Assembly: GCA_039028615.1 (NCBI GenBank)
Contig: JBCCHT010000002.1
Coordinates: 256,001-320,000 of the forward strand
Source: Myxococcota bacterium
GTDB lineage: Bacteria > Myxococcota_A > Polyangia > Nannocystales > Nannocystaceae
Direction of reading: 5' to 3'
Length of the DNA stretch: 64,000 nucleotides
Shown: piece by piece, positions 10,300-40,118 of the stretch
Layout: each line of letters starts with the position of its first letter
Numbering within the stretch: position 1 is the first letter of the stretch
Notes under the pieces: generated by a model
Seen by the model: the letters and a program-made list of their open reading frames with translations, nothing else
Databases searched by the model: none
Told to the model about the DNA's origin: nothing
Made by a program: the position numbers and the translations under genes

Positions 10300-12003
10300 T
10301 CAGCTTCCGGTCGCCTGCGCCCGCAGGGCTTCGTGGCGCGCACGAAACGGGCTGCCCTCGACCCACTGCGGGCGTCGCTGGTCGTTGGCGAGGGCATGAC
10401 CGGTGCGGAAGTAGATGGTCACGTCCTGCACGATGCCCGCCATGTCCCAGCTGTCGTCGTACTCGTCGGTCACCTGGTGATAGCGGCCCTGGACGAACTG
10501 CACGAAGTCCTCGACGGTCACCGTCTCGACGTCGTTGGGGTCGTGCGAGATGCCCCCCACCGCGAAGATGGCCGGGACCCCGCGCAGCGCAAAGGGATAG
10601 TGGTCGGATCGAAAGAACGCCCCCATCTCGGGCGCCGGGTCGGGATAGAGCTTGCGCCCCACCGTCTGCGCCGCCGCGGCCATGTAGTCCTCGAGCTCCG
10701 AGCTGCCCAGGGCGACCACCGTCATGCCTTTGGTCGCGCCGAAGGGAAACAGCGCATCCATGTTGATCACCCCCACCGCATCGGCCAACGGCAACACGGG
10801 GTGCTCGGCGTACCAGGTCGCGCCCAGCAGGCCCTGCTCTTCGGCGGTGGTCGCCACCAGCACCACCGAGCGCTCGGGCGCCTGCGGCAGCGCGGCATAA
10901 GCCTGCGCCAGCTCGAGCAACGCGGCCGTCCCCGTGGCGTTGTCGACCGCCCCGTTGTAGATGGTGTCGCCCTCCCCCGTGCCGCGACCCACGTGATCCC
11001 AGTGCGCGGTATAGACGACGTGCTCGTCGGGCCGAGTTCGACCGGGCAGCACCGCGACCACGTTGTGCGAGACGACCGGATTGACCTCGCGCTCGAGCAC
11101 CACCGACAGCCGCAGCGGCAGCTCGGTGGCCACAAAGTCATCGCGAGTGACGGACGATTGCAGCCGCTGCAGCGTGGCTCGGCCCGTGTCGTCGAGGCCC
11201 TGCTCCAGCGTGAGCCGCTGCACCAGGCCCACGATCGGCACCTTCGCCGGGCCCGAGGACTCGGCCAGCTGCTGCTTGGGTCGACGCGCGCCCTGACCGA
11301 ACACCTCCCATGCGACCGGCGAGTTTTTGCTGTCGTGCAGGATGAGCATCGCCGCCGCCCCGTGCTCGGCCGCCTGCTCGGCCTTGTGCCCCGTGGTGCC
11401 GTACAGGGTGAGCGCCCGCCCGTCGAAGAACTCGGGGTCGTCTCGCGAGGGGCCCGGATCGCCGCGCACGACCACGACGACCTTGCCGCGCACGTCCACC
11501 CCCGCGTAGTCGTCCCAGCCGTACTCGGGCGCGGTGATGCCATGGCCCACGAACACCACGGCGGCCTCCTTCAGCTCGACGCGGGGGTCGACCGTGGCGC
11601 TGCCGACGATGAGGTCGTCGGGGACCGCGAGTGATATCGGCTCGCCCGCGCCTCGGATGGAGGCCCGACTGGTGTCTCGCAGCGTCACCGATCGCAGCGG
11701 CACGGGCTGTAGGTAGCTACCCTCGAGCCCCGGCTGAAACCCCGCCTGCGCCAGGTGGGCGGTGAGATACGCGACCGTCTTCGTCTCGCCCGCACTGCCG
11801 GGAAAGCGGCCCTCGAAGTCGTCGGAGGCCAGGACCTGGATGTGCTCGCGCAGGTCCTCCGCCTGGATGCTGGCCACCGCTCGCTCTACACCCTGCACCT
11901 CCGACGCCGGGCTCTCGCCGTGCCCGGCGGGATGGCAACCGACGACGACGCCGAGACTCAGGGTGAACGAGCCGAGAACACTACGGGTGAGGTCATTCAT
12001 CAT
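10300..12003 (-). CDS. M28 family Zn-aminopeptidase lipoprotein with PA domain
   Basis: Lipobox VVGC; EGRFPGS, TAHWDHVG, NGAVDNATG, AEEQGLLG, INMD, RSDHYPF and YHQVTD motifs. Start overlaps the upstream stop (ATGA). Confidence 0.92.
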   Translation of the reverse strand: MMNDLTRSVLGSFTLSLGVVVGCHPAGHGESPASEVQGVERAVASIQAEDLREHIQVLASDDFEGRFPGSAGETKTVAYLTAHLAQAGFQPGLEGSYLQPVPLRSVTLRDTSRASIRGAGEPISLAVPDDLIVGSATVDPRVELKEAAVVFVGHGITAPEYGWDDYAGVDVRGKVVVVVRGDPGPSRDDPEFFDGRALTLYGTTGHKAEQAAEHGAAAMLILHDSKNSPVAWEVFGQGARRPKQQLAESSGPAKVPIVGLVQRLTLEQGLDDTGRATLQRLQSSVTRDDFVATELPLRLSVVLEREVNPVVSHNVVAVLPGRTRPDEHVVYTAHWDHVGRGTGEGDTIYNGAVDNATGTAALLELAQAYAALPQAPERSVVLVATTAEEQGLLGATWYAEHPVLPLADAVGVINMDALFPFGATKGMTVVALGSSELEDYMAAAAQTVGRKLYPDPAPEMGAFFRSDHYPFALRGVPAIFAVGGISHDPNDVETVTVEDFVQFVQGRYHQVTDEYDDSWDMAGIVQDVTIYFRTGHALANDQRRPQWVEGSPFRARHEALRAQATGS

Positions 12004-12584
12004 CGTTGCTCCGTGGAGGGGGCGAGAACCCAAGACAAGGCACACAGCACGCCGCGGCCGCGGGCCGGCCTCGGCTTGCGCAGGATGGCCAAGATCGCCT
12101 GCAGGTGACGGTTGATCTGCCGCAGGTCCTCGCGGCTGAGCCGAGCTTCGAGACGCAGCGACCACAGGTTGCGCAGCGGGCCACGCACCGCGACCTCCGG
12201 GTGCTCGAAGCCCTCGGAAAAGTCGCGCTCCGCCTGCCGCAGCAGCGAGCGCGTGGCTTTGCGCAGAGCCCCCACGTTGTCCGGGTCATCGGGCTCGTAG
12301 GCAATGTGCCAGCGCCGATGGGGTACGTCGTACAGCGCCTCGTCGCGACGCGAGGTCCCGCGCGAGCCCGCCTCGACCAGCAGCCCGACCGCGAGTAGCC
12401 GCCGTACGTGATAGTAGAGCGCGTCCGCGGGCCTCCCCAGCGACTGCGCCAGATCGGCCACCGACGAGGGCCCCAGTGCTTCCACTCGATCGAGGATGGC
12501 CTGGCGCACCGCCGACGTCAGCGCCTCGATCTGCTCGGGCTCCCGGATCCAACGAACCTTGGTCTTTGCCATGGGCGTCGTCAT
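12000..12584 (-). CDS. ArsR-like winged helix-turn-helix transcriptional regulator
   Basis: ALTSAVRQAIL...SVADLAQSLGRPADALYYHVRRL..GLL wHTH pattern with a C-terminal extension. Confidence 0.85.
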   Translation of the reverse strand: MTTPMAKTKVRWIREPEQIEALTSAVRQAILDRVEALGPSSVADLAQSLGRPADALYYHVRRLLAVGLLVEAGSRGTSRRDEALYDVPHRRWHIAYEPDDPDNVGALRKATRSLLRQAERDFSEGFEHPEVAVRGPLRNLWSLRLEARLSREDLRQINRHLQAILAILRKPRPARGRGVLCALSWVLAPSTEQR

Positions 12585-12685: not shown

Positions 12686-13618
12686 TCAGGCGTCTGCGCA
12701 GACGCCCGGCGGAGCGGACACGCAGGCCTCGTCGGGCGGCTCCTCGTAGTACGGGGTGCACGAGGTCCCGGGCAGAAGCGCCGGGCACGGGTCGTCGCCC
12801 ACCAGCGGGCAGTACGGCGTACAGCACCCCGAGCCCTCGCAGCCGGGGATGACATCGGCTCCGACGCATGCCGAGCCTTCGGGGCACACGTTGATGAACT
12901 CGCAGGCGTCGCCGATCATCGTGCCGGGCCGCGTGGCATCGGGGGCACACACGAAGCCCTGCTGTACCGGGTAGCACGCCTCCCCCTCTCCGCAGTCCTG
13001 GGCCAGCGGGTCGCAGCTCGGGATGCACAGCAGCAGGCTCGAGCTACCCGAGATCGAGCACTGATCGCAGGAATTGGGGCACACGGGGTCGTCGATGTCG
13101 CCAATGCAAAACTCGATGCAGGCGCCCATGTTCGTCTTTTCATCGACGTTCCAGCACATCGAGGTGCCGTCACAGTCGTCGATGCCGCTGAGCGCGTTGC
13201 CTTCGACCGAGCACGGCTGCCCCGGGGCGTTGGGGTCCTCGACGATGGGCACACACTTGGTCGCGTTCCACGTCGATCCGCCGTCGTTGGCGAAGGGCAT
13301 GCACTTGTAGCCCCGCGGGCAATCCTGGTCGATGATCGAGCAGAACTCGGGCAGGTCGGGCACGCCTCCGTCGTCCGTGGTGGGTCCGCTGTCCAGCACC
13401 CCGGTGTCTTGGGGTTCCTCGGTGGCGGTGCCGGGCAGCGTGTCGGTGGTACCGGGCGGGGTCGGAGTGCCGGTCGCGGCCTCGGTCCCGGATCCCGCGG
13501 TCTCGGCCTGGCTCCCGGCGTCGTCATCGGCCCCGACCTGAGGGCCACACGCCATCGTCAATCCCACGGCCATGGCGGCCGCCCATCTACCGAAGCCATG
13601 ATTCATGGATCGATCCAT
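12686..13618 (-). CDS. Cys-rich myxobacterial lipoprotein (CxxxxQDCPxGxKCMP-type domain)
   Basis: Lipobox TMAC, Thr/Gly/Asp linker, then CSIIDQDCPRGYKCMPFANDGGSTWNATKCVP...GIDDCDGTSMC. Paralogous to 13637-14500 and 38054-38836. Confidence 0.85.
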   Translation of the reverse strand: MDRSMNHGFGRWAAAMAVGLTMACGPQVGADDDAGSQAETAGSGTEAATGTPTPPGTTDTLPGTATEEPQDTGVLDSGPTTDDGGVPDLPEFCSIIDQDCPRGYKCMPFANDGGSTWNATKCVPIVEDPNAPGQPCSVEGNALSGIDDCDGTSMCWNVDEKTNMGACIEFCIGDIDDPVCPNSCDQCSISGSSSLLLCIPSCDPLAQDCGEGEACYPVQQGFVCAPDATRPGTMIGDACEFINVCPEGSACVGADVIPGCEGSGCCTPYCPLVGDDPCPALLPGTSCTPYYEEPPDEACVSAPPGVCADA

Positions 13619-13636: not shown

Positions 13637-14500
13637 TCAGGGCAACAGACACAGCCCCACGGGTGCGGGTGTGCATCCCTGGGCCTCCTCCCACCCCACG
13701 GATGTGCAAATCGTGCCAGTGAGCAACGTCGGACATGGGTCCGGCCCTTCGAGCGGGCAATAGGGCATGCAACAGCCTGACGTAGGGCCATCGCAATCGG
13801 GCACGCCCTCACCTCCCCAACACACCGAACCGGGGATACAGGCGTTGATGAACCGGCACGGGTCACCGAACGCGCCATCCGGGCTCGGGGCGAAGACCGA
13901 GCATGCGAAGACGTTCCCGGATCGGCTCGGGAGGCACGCCTCGCCCGCGAAACAGTCGGGGGCGAGAGGGTCACAGGCCTGGAGACAGACGGATACGACG
14001 CTCTCGCCGAAGACCGGACAGTAGTCGCAACGATTGGCACAAAAAGGGTTCGTGTCGTCGCCGATGCAAAACTCGATGCAGTAGCCCGTGCCCGTCTCGC
14101 TGGCGCCTCGACACATCGACGTGGCGTCGCAGTCGTCGGTCCAATCCGAGGCGTCTCCGAACACCGAGCACGGCTCGTCCGGCCCCTGAGGTTCGTCGAC
14201 GACGGGCACACAATGCCGGTCGTTCCACGAGCTGCTGTCATTGGCGTAGGGCAGACACTTTTCACCGGGCGGGCAATCCTGCTCGACCATCGAGCAGGGC
14301 CCGGAAGGGCCGGTAGTTCCCGAGCCCTCGTCCGCCCCTCCCGTGGTTCCGGTCGACGCACCACGGGTGGTGGTGGTCTCGGGCTGTTGCCCCGTGGCCG
14401 TCAGCGGGGTGACGACCCCCGTGGTGGACGACGACGCACCGGGTTCGCCATTCGTGCCGGTCGGCGCCCCCGGGCCGCAGCCGAAGACGAGCACCGCCAT
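13637..14500 (-). CDS. Cys-rich myxobacterial lipoprotein, tandem paralogue of 12686-13618
   Basis: Lipobox VFGC, Thr-rich linker, CSMVEQDCPPGEKCLPYANDSSSWNDRHCVP. Start is ATG 14500 or GTG 14512. Confidence 0.82.
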   Translation of the reverse strand: MAVLVFGCGPGAPTGTNGEPGASSSTTGVVTPLTATGQQPETTTTRGASTGTTGGADEGSGTTGPSGPCSMVEQDCPPGEKCLPYANDSSSWNDRHCVPVVDEPQGPDEPCSVFGDASDWTDDCDATSMCRGASETGTGYCIEFCIGDDTNPFCANRCDYCPVFGESVVSVCLQACDPLAPDCFAGEACLPSRSGNVFACSVFAPSPDGAFGDPCRFINACIPGSVCWGGEGVPDCDGPTSGCCMPYCPLEGPDPCPTLLTGTICTSVGWEEAQGCTPAPVGLCLLP

Positions 14501-14528
14501 CGCGATGAGCACCCGCCCCAGGTCGGCC

Positions 14529-16553
14529 TCACTTGCCTTCGCAATCAACGACGTCCTCGAACACACACGCCCCACCGCAGAAGCTCTCGGCCCGACCGTT
14601 GCGCAGATACGCATCCATCTGCTCCCGCGCGGCGCCGACCCAGCGCAGCCGCTCGTGGGGGTCTTCGCACAGGCGCTGTGGCTCGTTGGTGGTGGGATCG
14701 GGCGGGACGCCGAAGTCGTACTCGACGTACGCCGAGCCCTCGATCGGCCCCGCGCTCGAGTCGAGCCCCCAGACCTCACCGAGCCCGGTATCGAGCTGGG
14801 TGGTCCCGATCGCGCGCGCCATCGTCTGCGCCCCCAGAATCGACACCTGGTGGTCGCCCCGTGCCGCCCGCAGCAACACCTGGTGCGCGGGGCTGCCCGG
14901 CAGCGTGTCCTCGCGGATGTGTCGCGAGTAGCCCGCGGCCTCGGTCCGATCCCACAGCATCTGCATCAGCCCCTGGAGCATCCAGACGTCTCGCTGGTCG
15001 CTGAAGCGCGTCCGCAGGTTCGAGAAGAACCCGTCGAAGTCCTCGGCCCGCGACAGCAGCAGGTTGTAGGGCTGCCCGGTGACCCCCAAGACGCCGCGCT
15101 CGACGTCGGTGGTCAACGCCATATAGGTCGCACCGAAGTTCCCGCCCTGCCCGCTGCCGTGATAGTAGGCGCGGCTCGGGTCGACGAAGCGGCCGTAGTC
15201 CGCGTCCTGGCTGAAGCCGCCGGTCATCATGCGCATGGCCAGCAGCGAGTTGATCATGCCCTGGTGCTGACGATCGGTGAGCGACGAGAAGTCGTCGAAG
15301 CGCCCCTCCTCGGCAATCGCCCCCAGGTAGGGCTGGTCGTCGGTCATCATGCCCAGCATGTCGACGGAAAACAGCACGTAGCCGTAGTCGTTGGCGAAGC
15401 TCAAAAGGTGCGCCGCCTCGACCTGGGTGCGGTTGCCCAAAAGCCCATGGCCGTACTGCAACAGCGCCCCCGGGCTCTGATCGCTGACGCTCTGCGGGAT
15501 GATGATCTCGAAGGGGAACCAGCCCCAGGGCGCCTCGGGATTGGGCAGCGGGTCGCCGTCGGAGTCGAACACCAGGTGGCCTCCCGGGCCGCCCTCGGTG
15601 AGGAACAGCGGCACCTCCATCTGCCCGACGAGCCGCACCGCCACGGTGTCGTTCTCCCAGTCCTGGTCGACCACCGTGATGCGGTACTCCGGGCCCTGGC
15701 TGCCGACCAACGCCATCGCCGTGTCCCGCATGTCGAGCATCCACGCCGTGTTGTTCTCGCGGCTGGCCGTGGTGAAGTCCCACGCGATCTGCAGGTCGTG
15801 GCGGAGCACGTCGCCGGTCTCGAGCAGGTTGAAGATGTTGGTGTACAGCGCCCGTCGCCCTCGCACCGAGGCGTCATTGCTGGGCAGGCCGTCGCGCAGC
15901 GCTTCGAAGGCTTCCGAGGGCATCAAGGACTCGCCCTCGTCATCGACCAGGCGCCGAATCGCGACCACGTAGCGACGACCGTCATCGAGCCGAGTGGCGG
16001 GGCGAATCAACAAGGTCCGATGGTCGTCGGAGCCCGCGGTGGCATCGAGCTCGACCCAGTGCGGCACCCGCTCGCCCGACTCGGCATCCACCAGGATCGT
16101 GGGCGAGTCGAACTCCATCGAACGATCGATGTTGGCGAAGGTCGGGACGTCGCTGTCCCGCAGCGAGCTTTGGGTCAGCCCGGGGAAGTGGGTCATGATG
16201 GCCGAGCTGGCCGAGAACCCGTCCGCGCGATTCCAGGGTCCGGGCGAGGGCTTGAGCCCGAAGTAGTCCTCGGGCATCAGGTCCAGACCGAGCTGGAGCC
16301 GACGCCCGGTGGCCGTCGATTCGTCGACCACCGTGTAGACATTGGAGGGAAAGGGAAAGCCGCAGTAGCTGGGCGCCAGGGGGTCGCACTCGAGCAGCAT
16401 CCACTCGGCGACCGACTCCTCGGTGACCTCGAAGACCGGCTCTTGGCAGGCACCGAGCAGGCCGAGGCCGAGCCCGACCGTGAAGCAACGGGACACCAGG
16501 GTCTTGGGGGCGGATGTGCGGCGGGCGATCATGACGACGACGCGATCCTCCAA
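14529..16553 (-). CDS. Lipoprotein with an N-terminal Ig-like/lipase-N region and an alpha/beta-hydrolase-like domain
   Basis: Lipobox LGAC; FPFPSN, ADGFS, YGHGLLG, YYHGSGQGG elbow region, GDHQV and PHE motifs typical of extracellular lipase-like proteins. Start is uncertain. Confidence 0.75.
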   Translation of the reverse strand: MEDRVVVMIARRTSAPKTLVSRCFTVGLGLGLLGACQEPVFEVTEESVAEWMLLECDPLAPSYCGFPFPSNVYTVVDESTATGRRLQLGLDLMPEDYFGLKPSPGPWNRADGFSASSAIMTHFPGLTQSSLRDSDVPTFANIDRSMEFDSPTILVDAESGERVPHWVELDATAGSDDHRTLLIRPATRLDDGRRYVVAIRRLVDDEGESLMPSEAFEALRDGLPSNDASVRGRRALYTNIFNLLETGDVLRHDLQIAWDFTTASRENNTAWMLDMRDTAMALVGSQGPEYRITVVDQDWENDTVAVRLVGQMEVPLFLTEGGPGGHLVFDSDGDPLPNPEAPWGWFPFEIIIPQSVSDQSPGALLQYGHGLLGNRTQVEAAHLLSFANDYGYVLFSVDMLGMMTDDQPYLGAIAEEGRFDDFSSLTDRQHQGMINSLLAMRMMTGGFSQDADYGRFVDPSRAYYHGSGQGGNFGATYMALTTDVERGVLGVTGQPYNLLLSRAEDFDGFFSNLRTRFSDQRDVWMLQGLMQMLWDRTEAAGYSRHIREDTLPGSPAHQVLLRAARGDHQVSILGAQTMARAIGTTQLDTGLGEVWGLDSSAGPIEGSAYVEYDFGVPPDPTTNEPQRLCEDPHERLRWVGAAREQMDAYLRNGRAESFCGGACVFEDVVDCEGK

Positions 16554-32196: not shown

Positions 32197-32404
32197 GCGC
32201 TCGAGTTGTAGGGAGGTTGGCGTGCCGGTCGGGCAGGTCGCCTGTTCGCCGGATTGAGTATTCCGGCCGTGCTCAAACAGTGGTTTCACTCCTTGTCACA
32301 GCGTACCTACGCGCAAGAGCTTGGCAGACCGCGTCTGGTTGTGGGCGAGTCGCTACCAAAACTGCGCGCGCCCGGAATACTCAACCCGACGACGGCTCCC
32401 GCTT
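32197..32404 (+). repeat. Left arm core of a long inverted repeat (208 bp)
   Basis: Ungapped reverse-complement match to 32737-32944 with 3 mismatches by manual alignment. Weaker similarity extends outwards to the terminators and inwards to about 32459/32681. Confidence 0.95.
32254..32384. mobile_element. MITE-like or structured repeat element with 13-bp terminal inverted repeats, copy 1
   Basis: TTGAGTATTCCGG (32254-32266) ... CCGGAATACTCAA (32372-32384); non-coding, with internal hairpins. Confidence 0.5.
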
Positions 32405-32736
32405 CACTCGGTACGACGGGGCCGATCCATGGGGGCGGGTTTCGGGTTGGTGGCGCGCCCTGGGGACCTACGGGACCTCCTCGGTGTTCGCACGAGTACT
32501 CCGCCACGTGACTGCGTCTCACAACTGCTCGAGTCGAACTCTCTTCAAGAACACTCGAAGTGCACCGCGGGGCCGTTCAGGCGAGCCCTCCGCAAACGAA
32601 CCTCAACGGAATGGCCCGCTCCCTTCGCTCGCAGAGCACTCCGCACAACCGCGGGTTGGTCGCCACGCGGTCCACCAAACGGCGCACCACCGACCCCAAA
32701 CCCCGCCCCTTCGGATCGGCCCAGCCATACCGAGCC

Positions 32737-32944
32737 AAGCGGGAGCCGTCGTCGGGTTGAGTATTCCGGGCGCGCGCAGTTTTGGTAGCGACTCGCCCAC
32801 AACCAGACGCGGTCTGCCAAGCCCTTGCGCGTAGGTACGCTGTGACAAGGAGTGAAACCACTGTTTGAGCACGGCCGGAATACTCAATCCGGCGAACAGG
32901 CGACCTGCCCCACCGGCACGCCAACCTCCCCACAACTCGAGCGC
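32737..32944 (-). repeat. Right arm core of the long inverted repeat (208 bp)
   Basis: Reverse complement of 32197-32404. Confidence 0.95.
32757..32887. mobile_element. MITE-like or structured repeat element, copy 2 (inverted)
   Basis: Same 13-bp TIRs; one mismatch relative to copy 1. Confidence 0.5.
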
Positions 32945-33002
32945 CAAACCCGTCCCCGCGCCCGCGCCCGCGCCCGAACACCTCACTCCCAAAAACCAAA
33001 AG

Positions 33003-33035
33003 AAAAGGGGCACCCGCCAAAGCGAGCACCCCTTT
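33003..33035 (-). terminator. Intrinsic terminator of groEL, copy 2
   Basis: On the - strand: GGGGTGCTCGC-TTTG-GCGGGTGCCCC-TTTTCTTTT, about 30 nt after the groEL stop. Confidence 0.9.
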
Positions 33036-33063
33036 CGATGGCGACCCCGAAGGGCCCGAGCAC

Positions 33064-36628: not shown

Positions 36629-37720
36629 CTACTCCGTCAGCAGCTGGTGGGTCGCGATCTCGTCGTCGGTCATCCAGTGGATGTCCTCGGCGGGCGCGGC
36701 CGCGAGCGTGAACCAGTAGAAGTCGGGGCCGAGCGGGTCACCCAACATCTCGATGAAGTACGCGAGCTGAGACTCGTGAGCGGGGTGGTCCTGGGGGTAG
36801 TCCGCGCCGTCCATCACTCCATCGGACCACGAGTGGACCCCGAGCATCGCGCCCGGCTCGATCGAGCGCTCGAAGCCGGCGCAGAACAAGTCGACCCCGC
36901 CCGAGGCGATCTGGCCGTCCGCAGGGACGAAGGTGCCCCAGCCCGCCTCGCGGATCAGGCGGCCGGTCTGCACGTTGACCTCGTCGTTGATGGAGCCCGG
37001 TACGTCTTGCATCACGAGCGTGTCGACCTCGGGGCGCTGCTCGATGATGGCGTCGACCTGGCGATACGTGACGCTGCCCAGCGTGCCCTCGAGGGTGGCG
37101 GTCGACCCGTCGATCGCGAAGCGAGACGTGCCCGCCCCGAAGAAGAAGCACGCGGAGAGGGTGCGAGTCTCTGAGCCGTCGGACTGTTGCACGATCATCG
37201 GGTCGACCGAGACCGAGCCGAGCTCTTCGTCGAAGCTGATGCCGTCGGTCTGGCCCTCGAAGAGGGTCTCCCCTTCGAGCCACAGGACCGCCCCGGTGGG
37301 TTCTTCGCTCGCGGCATCGATGGGAACGAGCAGCACGCGGTCGCCCATGATGACTGCGATGGCGAGCATGCCGTCGATGTCGGTGGGAGCGACCTCCTCG
37401 ACTTCGAGGGCTTGGTCATCGACCCGGATGGCACCGGAGGCCACCCCATCGATGAGGTCGTCGAAGCTCAGGCGATCGATCGAGACGCACTCGGCCGGGG
37501 GCCCGAGATCGGTGCCTCCGCTCGTGTCGTCGGCGTGGGTGGGAGCGGTCGTAGACTCCGTCGCATCGTCGACGGCGGCGCTGCTCGTGCTTCCGTCGGC
37601 CGACTCGGTCGCGCTCGACGGCGTCTGCGTGTCTTCGGCACCCGGAGCGACCGGGCACGCGGCGGCACTCAGGGTCAGGAGCGAAAGGAAAGGGACTTGG
37701 ACTCGGGTCCAGTGGGACAT
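36629..37720 (-). CDS. Lipoprotein with a C-terminal ClpP/crotonase-like (COG3904-type) domain
   Basis: Lipobox AAAC; Ser/Thr linker; VPGS..D, IASGGVDLFCAG, LGVHSW and IHWMT..EI motifs. Confidence 0.72.
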   Translation of the reverse strand: MSHWTRVQVPFLSLLTLSAAACPVAPGAEDTQTPSSATESADGSTSSAAVDDATESTTAPTHADDTSGGTDLGPPAECVSIDRLSFDDLIDGVASGAIRVDDQALEVEEVAPTDIDGMLAIAVIMGDRVLLVPIDAASEEPTGAVLWLEGETLFEGQTDGISFDEELGSVSVDPMIVQQSDGSETRTLSACFFFGAGTSRFAIDGSTATLEGTLGSVTYRQVDAIIEQRPEVDTLVMQDVPGSINDEVNVQTGRLIREAGWGTFVPADGQIASGGVDLFCAGFERSIEPGAMLGVHSWSDGVMDGADYPQDHPAHESQLAYFIEMLGDPLGPDFYWFTLAAAPAEDIHWMTDDEIATHQLLTE

Positions 37721-38053
37721 GGCGAATGCCTCGGTCGGTTGCGATGACGCACCGAGGACCGAGAGGCACGCATATGCCCGAAGCAGCTCCACGTAGGATC
37801 AGCGCCGCTCCCGGTCACCTGCGGGCCACCGAGAACCGGAGAGCGCCACCAGCTGACTGAGATCGGGCGGTAACAAGCACGTCCCGCGGCTCCGATCATG
37901 TCCGAAAGATACTGTCGTCCGAGGGCGGCGCAAGCCGGGACCGCGTTCGCTCACGAACGAGGGGTGACGCGTCGCACCAGGGCCACGAGCGCCCGAAGAA
38001 ACCGGTCGAACGCCTGAAACCTCGCGGCGACGCGGTCGGCGGAACGCCGAGGC

Positions 38054-38836
38054 TCAGAAGCAGACCGCGGTGTCGCCCTTCAGCGGGAAGCACTCCTGCC
38101 CCTCGGGGCACTCGGGTGCTTCGAGATCGCAGGGCAGCAAGCATGCCGCGATCACCTCGTCATTGGCGACCGCACAGACCCGCTCCGCGTCGGCACAGGT
38201 CGGTGGTTCGATCGACTCGCAGAACGACACGCAGGTTCCGGTCAGGGCGTCGGGATCGACGTGAAAGCACATCGACGTGGCATCGCAATCGTCGATACCG
38301 CTGGTGGGCGAGCCGACCATGGTGCAGGGTTCACCCGCAGCGGCGGGGGTGTCCGAGATCGGAGCGCAGCGGGTGGCGTTCCATGCTTCGCCGCCATCGT
38401 TGGCCCACGGCATGCACTTTTCCCCGTCGGGGCAATCTTGCTCGATGATGTCGCACTCGTTCTCGACGCCACCGTCCGCGCCCCCGCCGTAGATGAAACC
38501 GGCGCCGGAGTTGGAATCGTCGACACCGCTGTCGGCATCGGTGGTGGTCGTGTCGAAGGCACCGCCCGACGAGTCCGCCGCCCCATTGGAGGTGGAGGTG
38601 AACGAGTCCTGATTGCCGTCGTCCGCGGGCGAGGTGGCGGTGGTGGTCACGTTGGCTCCGCCCGAGCCGTCGCCGCCCGACGGGAGCGTGCCGTCGTCGC
38701 TGCAGCCGACGAGGACCCCGGCCAGCCCGAGCACCGCGATCAGGGGGGCGCCGACTTCGCGAAGCGGGGCCCGGCAGAACGGGCACGACGGTTCGGAGGC
38801 GCGGACATGCCGGTCACAGCTCGGGCAGCTCTTCAT
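38054..38836 (-). CDS. Cys-rich lipoprotein with an N-terminal CxxCxRH...CPFC leader and a single YG motif; candidate rSAM substrate
   Basis: MKSCPSCDRHVRASEPSCPFC, lipobox LVGC (Cys45), Ser/Thr/Gly/Asp linker with FIYGG (Tyr116), then the CDIIEQDCPDGEKCMPWANDGG domain. Confidence 0.85.
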   Translation of the reverse strand: MKSCPSCDRHVRASEPSCPFCRAPLREVGAPLIAVLGLAGVLVGCSDDGTLPSGGDGSGGANVTTTATSPADDGNQDSFTSTSNGAADSSGGAFDTTTTDADSGVDDSNSGAGFIYGGGADGGVENECDIIEQDCPDGEKCMPWANDGGEAWNATRCAPISDTPAAAGEPCTMVGSPTSGIDDCDATSMCFHVDPDALTGTCVSFCESIEPPTCADAERVCAVANDEVIAACLLPCDLEAPECPEGQECFPLKGDTAVCF

Positions 38837-38876
38837 TGCCCTTCAAGGCTAACAAAACAAACTACTATTACCAACA

Positions 38877-40118
38877 TCATTCGGCGCCAGGGCCGAATGG
38901 TTCGACGATCAGCTCAAAGGCGCCCATCCCGAACGGCTCGTCGGGGGCGGCCTTGGTCATGACCACACGCTCGCGCAATCCACGCTCTCGCAGATCGAGC
39001 ACTCGGTGATGGCAGTACGGGTTGTTGCCGGGGCGACCGAACAGCGGCTCCGCGGTGGCAGTGCAGCCGGCCTTGCAGGTCTCGGCGTAGTAGCAGTCGC
39101 GGCAGTAGCCCCACAGATCGTCGACGGTACGGCGCTCGAGGGCGCGAATCTGCGGCGCCTCTTCCCACAGCTTCATCAGGCTCTGCTCGCGCACGTTGCC
39201 GCCCGTATTGGCCGGGCCCCCGAGGCTGGGGCAGCTCTTGATCGCACCGTTGGACTCGATGCCCAGACCGGTGCGCCCCGCCTGACACCCCTGGTAGTGG
39301 GCGTCGGCGTTCTGGTTGCGACGCAGCCTCTTTTCGAGCGGACCGAAGTAGCCGAGGTTGTTGCCCGGCCAAAACCGAATGCCCCGGGCGTCGCACAGAT
39401 CGAGCACCCCTTCGAGCTCTTCGTAGACCTCGACCAGCATGTAGGGCTGCAAGACCATCTCGGTGTGATCGGCCGCGTTACCGTGCGCGATGGTGAGGAA
39501 CATCTGCCAGACCCCGACCCCCGCGTCGGCGAGCAGCCCCCCCAGCTCGACCAGCTCCCCCATGGTGCCGCGGTTGATCTGCGAGTTGGCGCCGAGCCTG
39601 ATGCCCGCCTCCTTCGCGAACCGAAGCGCATCGAAGGCCCGCGTCCATCCGCCCGGCGTGCCGCGCAGCGCATCGTGGGTGGACTCGAGACCATCGATGG
39701 ACACGGAGATGAGCTCGATGCCCGCCTCGGCCAGCGCTTCCACGCGGGGGCGAGTGAGGGTGAGGCCTCCCGTGGTCATGGTGGCCTTCATGCCGCGCTG
39801 CCGAATGTGCCGGACCACCGCCAAGACATCGTCGCGGAGATAGGCCTCGCCCCCGATCATGGTGACCTCGCCGACCCCGAGATCGGCGAGTTCATCGACC
39901 AGATCGAGCGACTCTTGCAGGGTGAGCTCATCGGGCCGAGCCTTGCCCGCCCGCGGGCCGCAGGCCTGGCAGCGCTGGTCGCAGGCCAGCGTGAACTCCC
40001 AGACCGCATACGTGGGCGAGGGGCGTTCGCGAACCTTGCGGTCGTTGAAGTAGCGATCGCGAGACTTGGGCAATCCGTCCACGACGGGCAAGCGACGGCG
40101 TGCTCGATGCAACGACAT
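38877..40118 (-). CDS. Radical SAM/SPASM peptide or protein maturase (PlpX splicease / TIGR03913-like)
   Basis: VWEFTLACDQRCQACGPRAG (CxxxCxxC), IGGE, SVSIDG, GNNLGYFG; SPASM cysteines CQAG...KSCPSL...GYCRDCYYAETCKAGC...GNNPYCHHR. Confidence 0.9.
   Translation of the reverse strand: MSLHRARRRLPVVDGLPKSRDRYFNDRKVRERPSPTYAVWEFTLACDQRCQACGPRAGKARPDELTLQESLDLVDELADLGVGEVTMIGGEAYLRDDVLAVVRHIRQRGMKATMTTGGLTLTRPRVEALAEAGIELISVSIDGLESTHDALRGTPGGWTRAFDALRFAKEAGIRLGANSQINRGTMGELVELGGLLADAGVGVWQMFLTIAHGNAADHTEMVLQPYMLVEVYEELEGVLDLCDARGIRFWPGNNLGYFGPLEKRLRRNQNADAHYQGCQAGRTGLGIESNGAIKSCPSLGGPANTGGNVREQSLMKLWEEAPQIRALERRTVDDLWGYCRDCYYAETCKAGCTATAEPLFGRPGNNPYCHHRVLDLRERGLRERVVMTKAAPDEPFGMGAFELIVEPFGPGAE

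Follow-up and report, generated by a model that had tools for sequence, protein, structure and literature searches.

Within a 64,000-nucleotide stretch of DNA from a Myxococcota bacterium of the family Nannocystaceae (GenBank assembly GCA_039028615.1, contig JBCCHT010000002.1, positions 256,001 to 320,000; the whole stretch is called the window below), a gene for a radical S-adenosylmethionine (SAM)/SPASM enzyme adjoins a gene for a predicted lipoprotein that begins with a four-cysteine ribbon and contains a single tyrosine. Profile scores, a tree and conserved residues place the enzyme in the clade of spliceases, which excise tyramine from a backbone and leave a ketoamide, and comparison with related loci indicates that the pair is one of a widespread family, not a singular locus. 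Most likely the two genes form a spliceotide system of myxobacteria with envelope lipoproteins as its substrates, whose chemistry and role we infer from these comparisons. Taken as a whole, spliceotide-type backbone editing of the lipoprotein by the adjacent enzyme, followed by export, is an explanation that we consider moderately probable. The elements of the pair are the following.

38877..40118, minus strand: radical SAM/SPASM enzyme gene, 413 residues, assigned to the splicease clade by NCBIfam scores and tree, without a C-terminal ribbon
38054..38836, minus strand: predicted substrate lipoprotein gene, 260 residues
38774..38827, minus strand: four-Cys zinc-ribbon-type leader, Cys4-Cys21, CxxCxRH-x7-CPFC
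38702..38752, minus strand: hydrophobic signal region and lipobox, last residue Cys45
38462..38701, minus strand: disordered Ser/Thr/Gly/Asp stalk, residues 46-125
38486..38494, minus strand: Ile115-Tyr116-Gly117, the predicted modification site, in the family's Phe114 motif
38057..38455, minus strand: folded beta domain rich in Cys, Cys128-Phe260, shared by a large lipoprotein family of myxobacteria

The enzyme and its gene neighbours

The enzyme matched the Pfam Radical_SAM and SPASM models, both above cut-off. Its best NCBIfam models were TIGR04103 (416 bits) and TIGR03913 (403 bits), the next family reaching 149 bits and the PqqE, NirJ and AhbC/D models 82-134 bits. Of the 104 columns that the other splicease groups conserve, it retains 88, together with the VWExTLAC, GNNxGY and GNNPYCHHR motifs, which have counterparts in the PcpX sequence of the PMC11414181 supplement. 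In a 67-row tree from a quick maximum-likelihood search (fetched loci gave 56 rows, the host genome 9 and annotated outgroups 2), the window enzyme fell in a 25-row Nannocystaceae-type clade (support 100) nested in a 61-row splicease clade (96 by the SH-like approximate likelihood ratio test, SH-aLRT); the latter also takes in a cyanobacterial/Rheinheimera group (17 rows, 100) and a GDL group (5 rows, 99), with PqqE and TIGR04053 outside. Identity was 44% to RhaX over 388 positions, 47% to L126, which is closely related to PcpX, and also 47% to a maturase annotated as GDL, RhaX and a GDL enzyme being 43% identical to each other. The relatives of the enzyme came mostly from Nannocystaceae records. 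The earlier note on this DNA had suspected a splicease and had set NirJ, AhbCD and PqqE against it, and profile scores, tree and conserved columns all bear out the first assignment. From the sequence likeness we infer that the window enzyme and the known spliceases share the same chemistry.

The enzyme did not reach the curated cut-off of TIGR04103 (725 bits). This does not exclude splicing, since RhaX itself scores 626 bits; the RhaX/RhaA locus (L080) was recognised from the first 69 enzyme residues and the precursor, which agree with sequences in the PMC11414181 supplement. The TIGR03913 cut-off (591.75 bits) was likewise not reached, the match covering profile positions 5-391 of 477 only. 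A sequence search found no solved splicease, the best matches in the PDB being SkfB, BlsE and PqqE at 54-71 bits.

The pairing of the two genes recurs elsewhere, and a suspicion that enzyme and ribbon-bearing lipoprotein belong together thereby gained general support. Among 66 related loci (L001-L066), 58 had a ribbon gene within the fetched flanks, 41 of the ribbon genes lying on the enzyme strand and 31 on the opposite one. In an even sample of 151 genomes of the phylum the enzyme was present in 56; at the 30 best loci of this sample a ribbon gene lay within 1.5 kb in 26 cases, and the ribbon open reading frames (ORFs) contained Tyr-Gly (YG), often repeated, in 37 of 38. Within a Nannocystaceae sample, 56 of 60 genomes had the enzyme, with up to 9 copies each. 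The sister enzymes of the window enzyme have partners with intact FIYG or VYG.

The host genome (12.27 Mb, 68% GC) encodes six full-length enzymes and one split copy, as well as nine ribbon proteins (seven with YG, two with Tyr-Ala, YA, only). Five of the six full-length enzymes abut a ribbon gene, and four ribbon genes are orphans. Around the sixth enzyme copy, C42:17483-18898, no ribbon gene lies within 1.5 kb; the four orphan proteins may be its substrates. At C80:11171-13304, a splicease-type gene is in two parts, one on either side of a small, secreted, Cys-rich ORF (11970-12509).

The ribbon lipoprotein and its stalk tyrosine

Both ORFs of the window pair and the 40-bp gap between them were recovered from the sequence as the earlier note had described them, and the translation of 38054-38836 contains the CPSCDRH-x7-CPFC leader, the lipobox Cys45 and the GFIYGGG segment. 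The protein has one Tyr only, Tyr116 (codon 38489-38491, TAC), with Gly as the next residue. An AlphaFold2 model built on 119 sequences (predicted template modelling score 0.56) gave a predicted local distance difference test (pLDDT) of 86-87 over residues 1-20, the ribbon, about 46-58 over residues 31-120, a disordered region that includes Tyr116, and 94-98 over the beta domain (residues 131-260). Residues C4, C7, H10, C18, P19, F20 and C21 are invariant in 21 aligned homologues, and the leader gave a weak match to Pfam Zn_ribbon_3, below cut-off; it is probably a zinc-ribbon-type element with putative zinc binding.

The lipoprotein call was made from the hydrophobic region and the lipobox Cys. 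Cys45 is invariant in 21 of 21 aligned ribbon-bearing homologues and present in at least 90% of the 119 homologues. The 12 residues before Cys45 have a mean hydropathy of 2.6 in the window protein; before the lipobox Cys, the mean is 2.13 in 22 ribbon-bearing and 1.84 in 83 leaderless members, and Gly, Ala or Ser stands at -1 in all of these. The signal and lipobox read by the earlier note are thus as good in ribbon-bearing proteins as in their leaderless relatives, and the pattern supports a predicted lipoprotein signal.

The Cys-rich domain found no Foldseek match in the PDB at E<=0.001, no Pfam or NCBIfam family, and only unnamed myxobacterial clusters in the ESM Atlas. Its automatic name, 'ribulose phosphate epimerase', had no Pfam support and was rejected. 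About 61 paralogues of the domain occur in the host genome, three of them in the window, and most carry a Phe-x(3)-Pro-Asp-Gly-Gly motif ahead of the domain; F114 is present in at least 90% of the 119 homologues. Two of the window paralogues serve as natural controls, both having neither ribbon nor YG, as had been noticed before:

12686..13618, minus strand: leaderless paralogue of the Cys-rich domain, no ribbon, no YG
13637..14500, minus strand: second leaderless paralogue, no ribbon, no YG

For the latter, the ATG start at 14500 falls within a longer GTG-started ORF (13637-14779).

The ribbon and the stalk Tyr go together, a coupling that the earlier note had put forward for checking. Among the best 120 of 194 substrate homologues, scored for Tyr within 45 residues before the domain, a stalk Tyr-Gly/Ala was found in 22 of 22 ribbon-bearing proteins and in 5 of 98 without a ribbon, at least two of the five resembling truncated gene calls. 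Within the host genome, both ribbon-bearing paralogues of the 61 have the stalk Tyr site and both adjoin a splicease-type gene; a single one of the 59 others has such a site (YG). The association of ribbon, Tyr and enzyme in this genome is more than chance. The second ribbon-bearing paralogue has Tyr-Ala-Gly in place of YG; the Tyr-Ala-Gly pair of this genome is located at C1:5342-7858.

The Tyr is set in or beside the Phe motif common to the whole family, and it occupies three offsets: FIYG, FYA/FYG, and VYG just ahead of the domain. On the domain tree, 13 changes of the ribbon label are needed, at least three of them on well-supported branches. Of 113 Tyr cases, 72 have Gly as the next residue, where the background frequency of Gly is 15%, and the site consensus is Tyr-(Gly/Ala)-(Gly/Ala)-(Pro/Ala). 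A homologue 77-78% identical to the window lipoprotein retains the ribbon and IYGGG. Complete precursors at loci L001-L066 numbered 69 (72 found, 3 removed as cut by the locus end). Nine of them have neither YG nor YA: three look truncated or spurious, and six have Tyr-Thr (ribbon lipoproteins beside the enzyme at L002, L003, L062, L064 and L066) or Tyr-Ser (L031) and are candidates for widened specificity or other chemistry. A further subtype has YG directly after the lipobox Cys (host genome C8:122925-123572 and C26:121445-121879; L210, L212, L213 and L217), so that homologation would fall on the lipidated Cys itself.

The ribbon also occurs on enzymes. A profile built from 72 leaders matched a C-terminal CxxC-x10-CPxC in 4 of 4 full-length GDL-clade enzymes; it had no match in the cyanobacterial or Rheinheimera enzymes, and the window enzyme has no C-terminal ribbon tail. 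Two partial acidobacterial loci have the same ribbon-enzyme fusion, and a Tropicibacter enzyme carries the ribbon at its N-terminus. The acidobacterial GDL-type ribbons scored 30 and 35 bits, L187 and L129 17 bits each and L191 9 bits. Y proteins and the RhaA leader activate their enzymes, also when fused to the enzyme C-terminus (PMC11414181). A like-spaced ribbon fused to the C-terminus of GDL-clade enzymes suggests a docking or activator module, and the simplest reading by analogy is that the ribbon would dock on or activate the enzyme, in cis where it is part of a GDL enzyme and in trans in the window pair. The Tropicibacter gene (L192:2749-4371, on a plasmid) encodes a splicease-like enzyme, and its operon also contains another radical SAM gene as well as genes for a phosphotransferase and two peptidases. 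In Caballeronia, a ribbon and helix have a short ORF of their own (L150:417-629), which overlaps the enzyme gene end, either a stand-alone activator or a frameshift.

As to the surroundings of the pair, the 40-bp spacer (38837-38876) is strongly AT-rich for a genome of this GC content, with a purine-rich stretch before the ATG. A promoter scan returned 0 sites, and terminator-like sites (3 against 1.3 expected) were given no weight. Just downstream, 36629-37792 (minus strand) encodes a COG3904/ClpP-like predicted exported protein. It was considered as a protease partner and rejected: it had no match at 95 other enzyme loci, and only 8 of the 60 family genomes have it, including one that lacks the enzyme. 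Its single paralogue (C8:118030-118944) is some 4.5 kb away from another splicease gene, a link not kept elsewhere. Farther away, a repeated sequence at 32250-33060, between groEL and its upstream gene, gives near-identical translated stretches in several ORFs.

Proposed editing and competing explanations

In the model that we propose, the four-Cys ribbon would emerge first and recruit the cytoplasmic enzyme, docking on and activating it, a part played in known systems by PlpY or a leader helix. Tyr116 would then lose tyramine to give an Ile-derived ketoamide; that the enzyme turns the backbone at the stalk Tyr into a reactive ketoamide before export is likely on sequence grounds. Spliceases are known to edit tags placed in loops of folded proteins (PMC11414181). 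The edited chain would be exported by Sec and lipidated at Cys45, and signal cleavage would remove ribbon and signal. The Cys-rich domain would form its disulfides after export, and the ketoamide would end on a flexible, membrane-tethered stalk just ahead of this disulfide-rich domain. The best-supported guess on its role is that it may act in the envelope as a trap for serine or cysteine proteases, because spliced peptides inhibit such proteases and unspliced peptides do not (PMC11626197); we regard this trap, the weakest step of the model, as possible rather than probable.

Several observations weigh against the model. None of the myxobacterial enzyme sequences in our set could be tied to a published activity. 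The enzyme tree came from a short search with long-branch warnings and contained no NirJ/Ahb row. The window enzyme departs from the consensus at 16 of the 104 conserved columns; family-wide departures include W354A, M212H, S55P and P233E, and those limited to its subclade include CxxxCxAC for CxxxCxHC (9 of 138) and Q207F. At position +3 of the site, Pro or Ala is found 84 times in 85 sites, but the window protein carries Gly there. Nor is the Gly after Tyr fixed: the 22 ribbon-bearing homologues comprise 12 with YG and 10 with YA, and the 69 complete precursors comprise 46 with YG, 14 with YA only and 9 with neither. The earlier note had expected YG to be conserved in leader-bearing homologues, which held for the Tyr and not strictly for the Gly, and in part this is an outcome that the note had named as refuting; the cited spliceotide papers, in the portions available, describe XYG sites only. 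Phylogenetic independence of the ribbon-Tyr coupling is not borne out by the tree, whose well-supported branches hold only three independent pairs (p about 0.5 in a sign test, not significant), for which reason we regard a repeated grafting of the ribbon onto Cys-domain lipoproteins as suggested and go no further. Finally, generic zinc ribbons of the host genome score up to 19 bits on the ribbon profile, so that among the scores above only the 30- and 35-bit acidobacterial ribbons are clearly specific.

With the same enzyme and substrate, other radical chemistry at Tyr might occur, such as a side-chain crosslink, a formylglycine-like product or backbone cleavage. Diverged Nannocystaceae enzymes of this kind would account for the relaxed +1 position of the Tyr-Ala, Tyr-Thr and Tyr-Ser sites, and both the long branch leading to the Nannocystaceae clade and the 16 changes at otherwise conserved columns fit them. 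We nevertheless hold this to be unlikely: most splicease columns are retained, YG is still the commonest site among the precursors and near-universal in other lineages (37 of 38), and other spliceases tolerate varied X residues (PMC10533398, PMC9811515). Tyramine could also be excised as proposed, with the ketoamide then serving as a covalent handle to envelope amines or as a breakable link that sheds the Cys-rich domain from its lipid anchor. Alpha-ketoamides are labile to peroxide, and the site lies 12 residues ahead of the folded domain, between domain and anchor. Ketoamides are described as reactive handles (PMC10533398). Shedding, however, sits poorly with a family in which most members have no folded domain to shed (it is carried by 6 of 72 precursors only) and many precursors have repeated YG sites, a better fit to a payload than to a hinge, and we rate such uses of the ketoamide as somewhat unlikely.

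It is also conceivable that the hydrophobic segment is an enzyme-binding helix only, that no lipoprotein export takes place, and that a protease frees a small spliced peptide as in classical peptides that are made on ribosomes and modified after translation (RiPPs). A folded ribbon in front of a signal is an unusual arrangement, which favours this view. The leaders of type II systems do bind their enzyme through a helix (PMC11414181). Yet the segment and its Cys resemble those of the leaderless lipoprotein paralogues in hydropathy (2.13 against 1.84), the 16-Cys domain is expected to fold outside the cytoplasm, and no flanking gene is common to the window locus and 95 other enzyme loci, hence no conserved peptidase or transporter; peptide release thus appears quite improbable. 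That the window copy is a decaying or idle member whose protein is no longer modified is very improbable. Its off-consensus Gly at +3 would agree with decay, as would the truncation of several ribbon genes elsewhere and the split enzyme copy of the host genome, but both window ORFs are intact, the close homologue keeps ribbon and site, and the sister enzymes have intact partners. Backbone editing followed by export remains the explanation that we prefer.

Known spliceotide systems and implications

Spliceotides are an established family (PMC9811515, PMC11002830, PMC11117315). For the further types surveyed by Scott et al. (Chem 2022), citing papers give 27 systems as characterised and 939 as predicted across diverse bacteria, none of them with Y (PMC11414181, PMC10849128, PMC10533398). 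The closest parallel to the window pair is RhaX/RhaA (also RasX/RasA) of Rheinheimera aquimaris, a type II system that, like the pair described here, has two components, no Y and an adjacent XYG precursor (PMC11414181, PMC11626197). RhaA, however, is a 63-residue peptide with a helical leader, encoded beside an ATP-binding cassette (ABC) exporter, whereas the partner here is a 260-residue protein made of ribbon, signal and folded domain, and the window locus has no conserved exporter. The type I systems PlpXY/PlpA and PcpXY/PcpA (TIGR04103) share enzyme clade and motifs with the window enzyme, but they have a separate Y protein and Nif11-type precursors; the window precursor is unrelated to Nif11/NHLP. 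A Y-like profile, which matches 68 of those loci that had been collected through a motif or an annotation, found nothing in host-genome ORFs of at least 40 residues at E<=1, nor at loci L001-L066, in line with the earlier remark that no PlpY partner is visible nearby. Its absence is expected, because all non-cyanobacterial splicease types lack a Y protein (PMC11414181). The TIGR03913 GDL maturases are 47% identical to the window enzyme and their system has a CxxC-x10-CPxC ribbon too, carried by the enzyme and not, as here, by the substrate; their partners are DUF1843 peptides of about 55-70 residues. By these comparisons the window pair would work like a spliceotide system outside type I and TIGR03913, most likely a myxobacterial type.

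No description of ribbon-led lipoprotein substrates was found in the literature searched, where coverage of subscription journals was thin. The survey of Scott et al. (Chem 2022), which defined the spliceotide types, reportedly includes many myxobacterial enzymes, with myxobacteria as a major carrier, and large protein substrates, and may already cover the ribbon-lipoprotein family. New elements at this locus are a substrate that has a folded domain and brings its own controls, a relaxed site, and a use of the ribbon in common with GDL enzymes.

The above findings would also allow a bolder idea, which we think unlikely to hold: a portable two-part code of myxobacteria, in which an N-terminal zinc ribbon and one stalk Tyr mark folded envelope lipoproteins for backbone editing. 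The ribbon would be a mobile splicease-activating module, found on substrates, at the GDL C-terminus and at the N-terminus of one alphaproteobacterial enzyme, and added more than once to Cys-rich lipoproteins; Nannocystaceae sites would have widened to Tyr-Ala and Tyr-Thr. If true, the backbone of a native protein of full size, anchored to a membrane, would contain a beta-amino acid, which would be new to print. A ribbon of about 25 residues able to recruit a splicease would extend the tools for protein labelling, as would enzymes active on Tyr-Ala or Tyr-Thr. The final spliceotide products of native hosts were still elusive according to a 2022 review (PMC9811515), and a lipid-anchored folded-domain substrate with dozens of untagged paralogues would offer a direct route to the location of these products and to the role of the ketoamide. 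The enzyme is present in 56 of 60 family genomes, in up to 9 copies, and its activity therefore looks like routine envelope biology in the Nannocystaceae.

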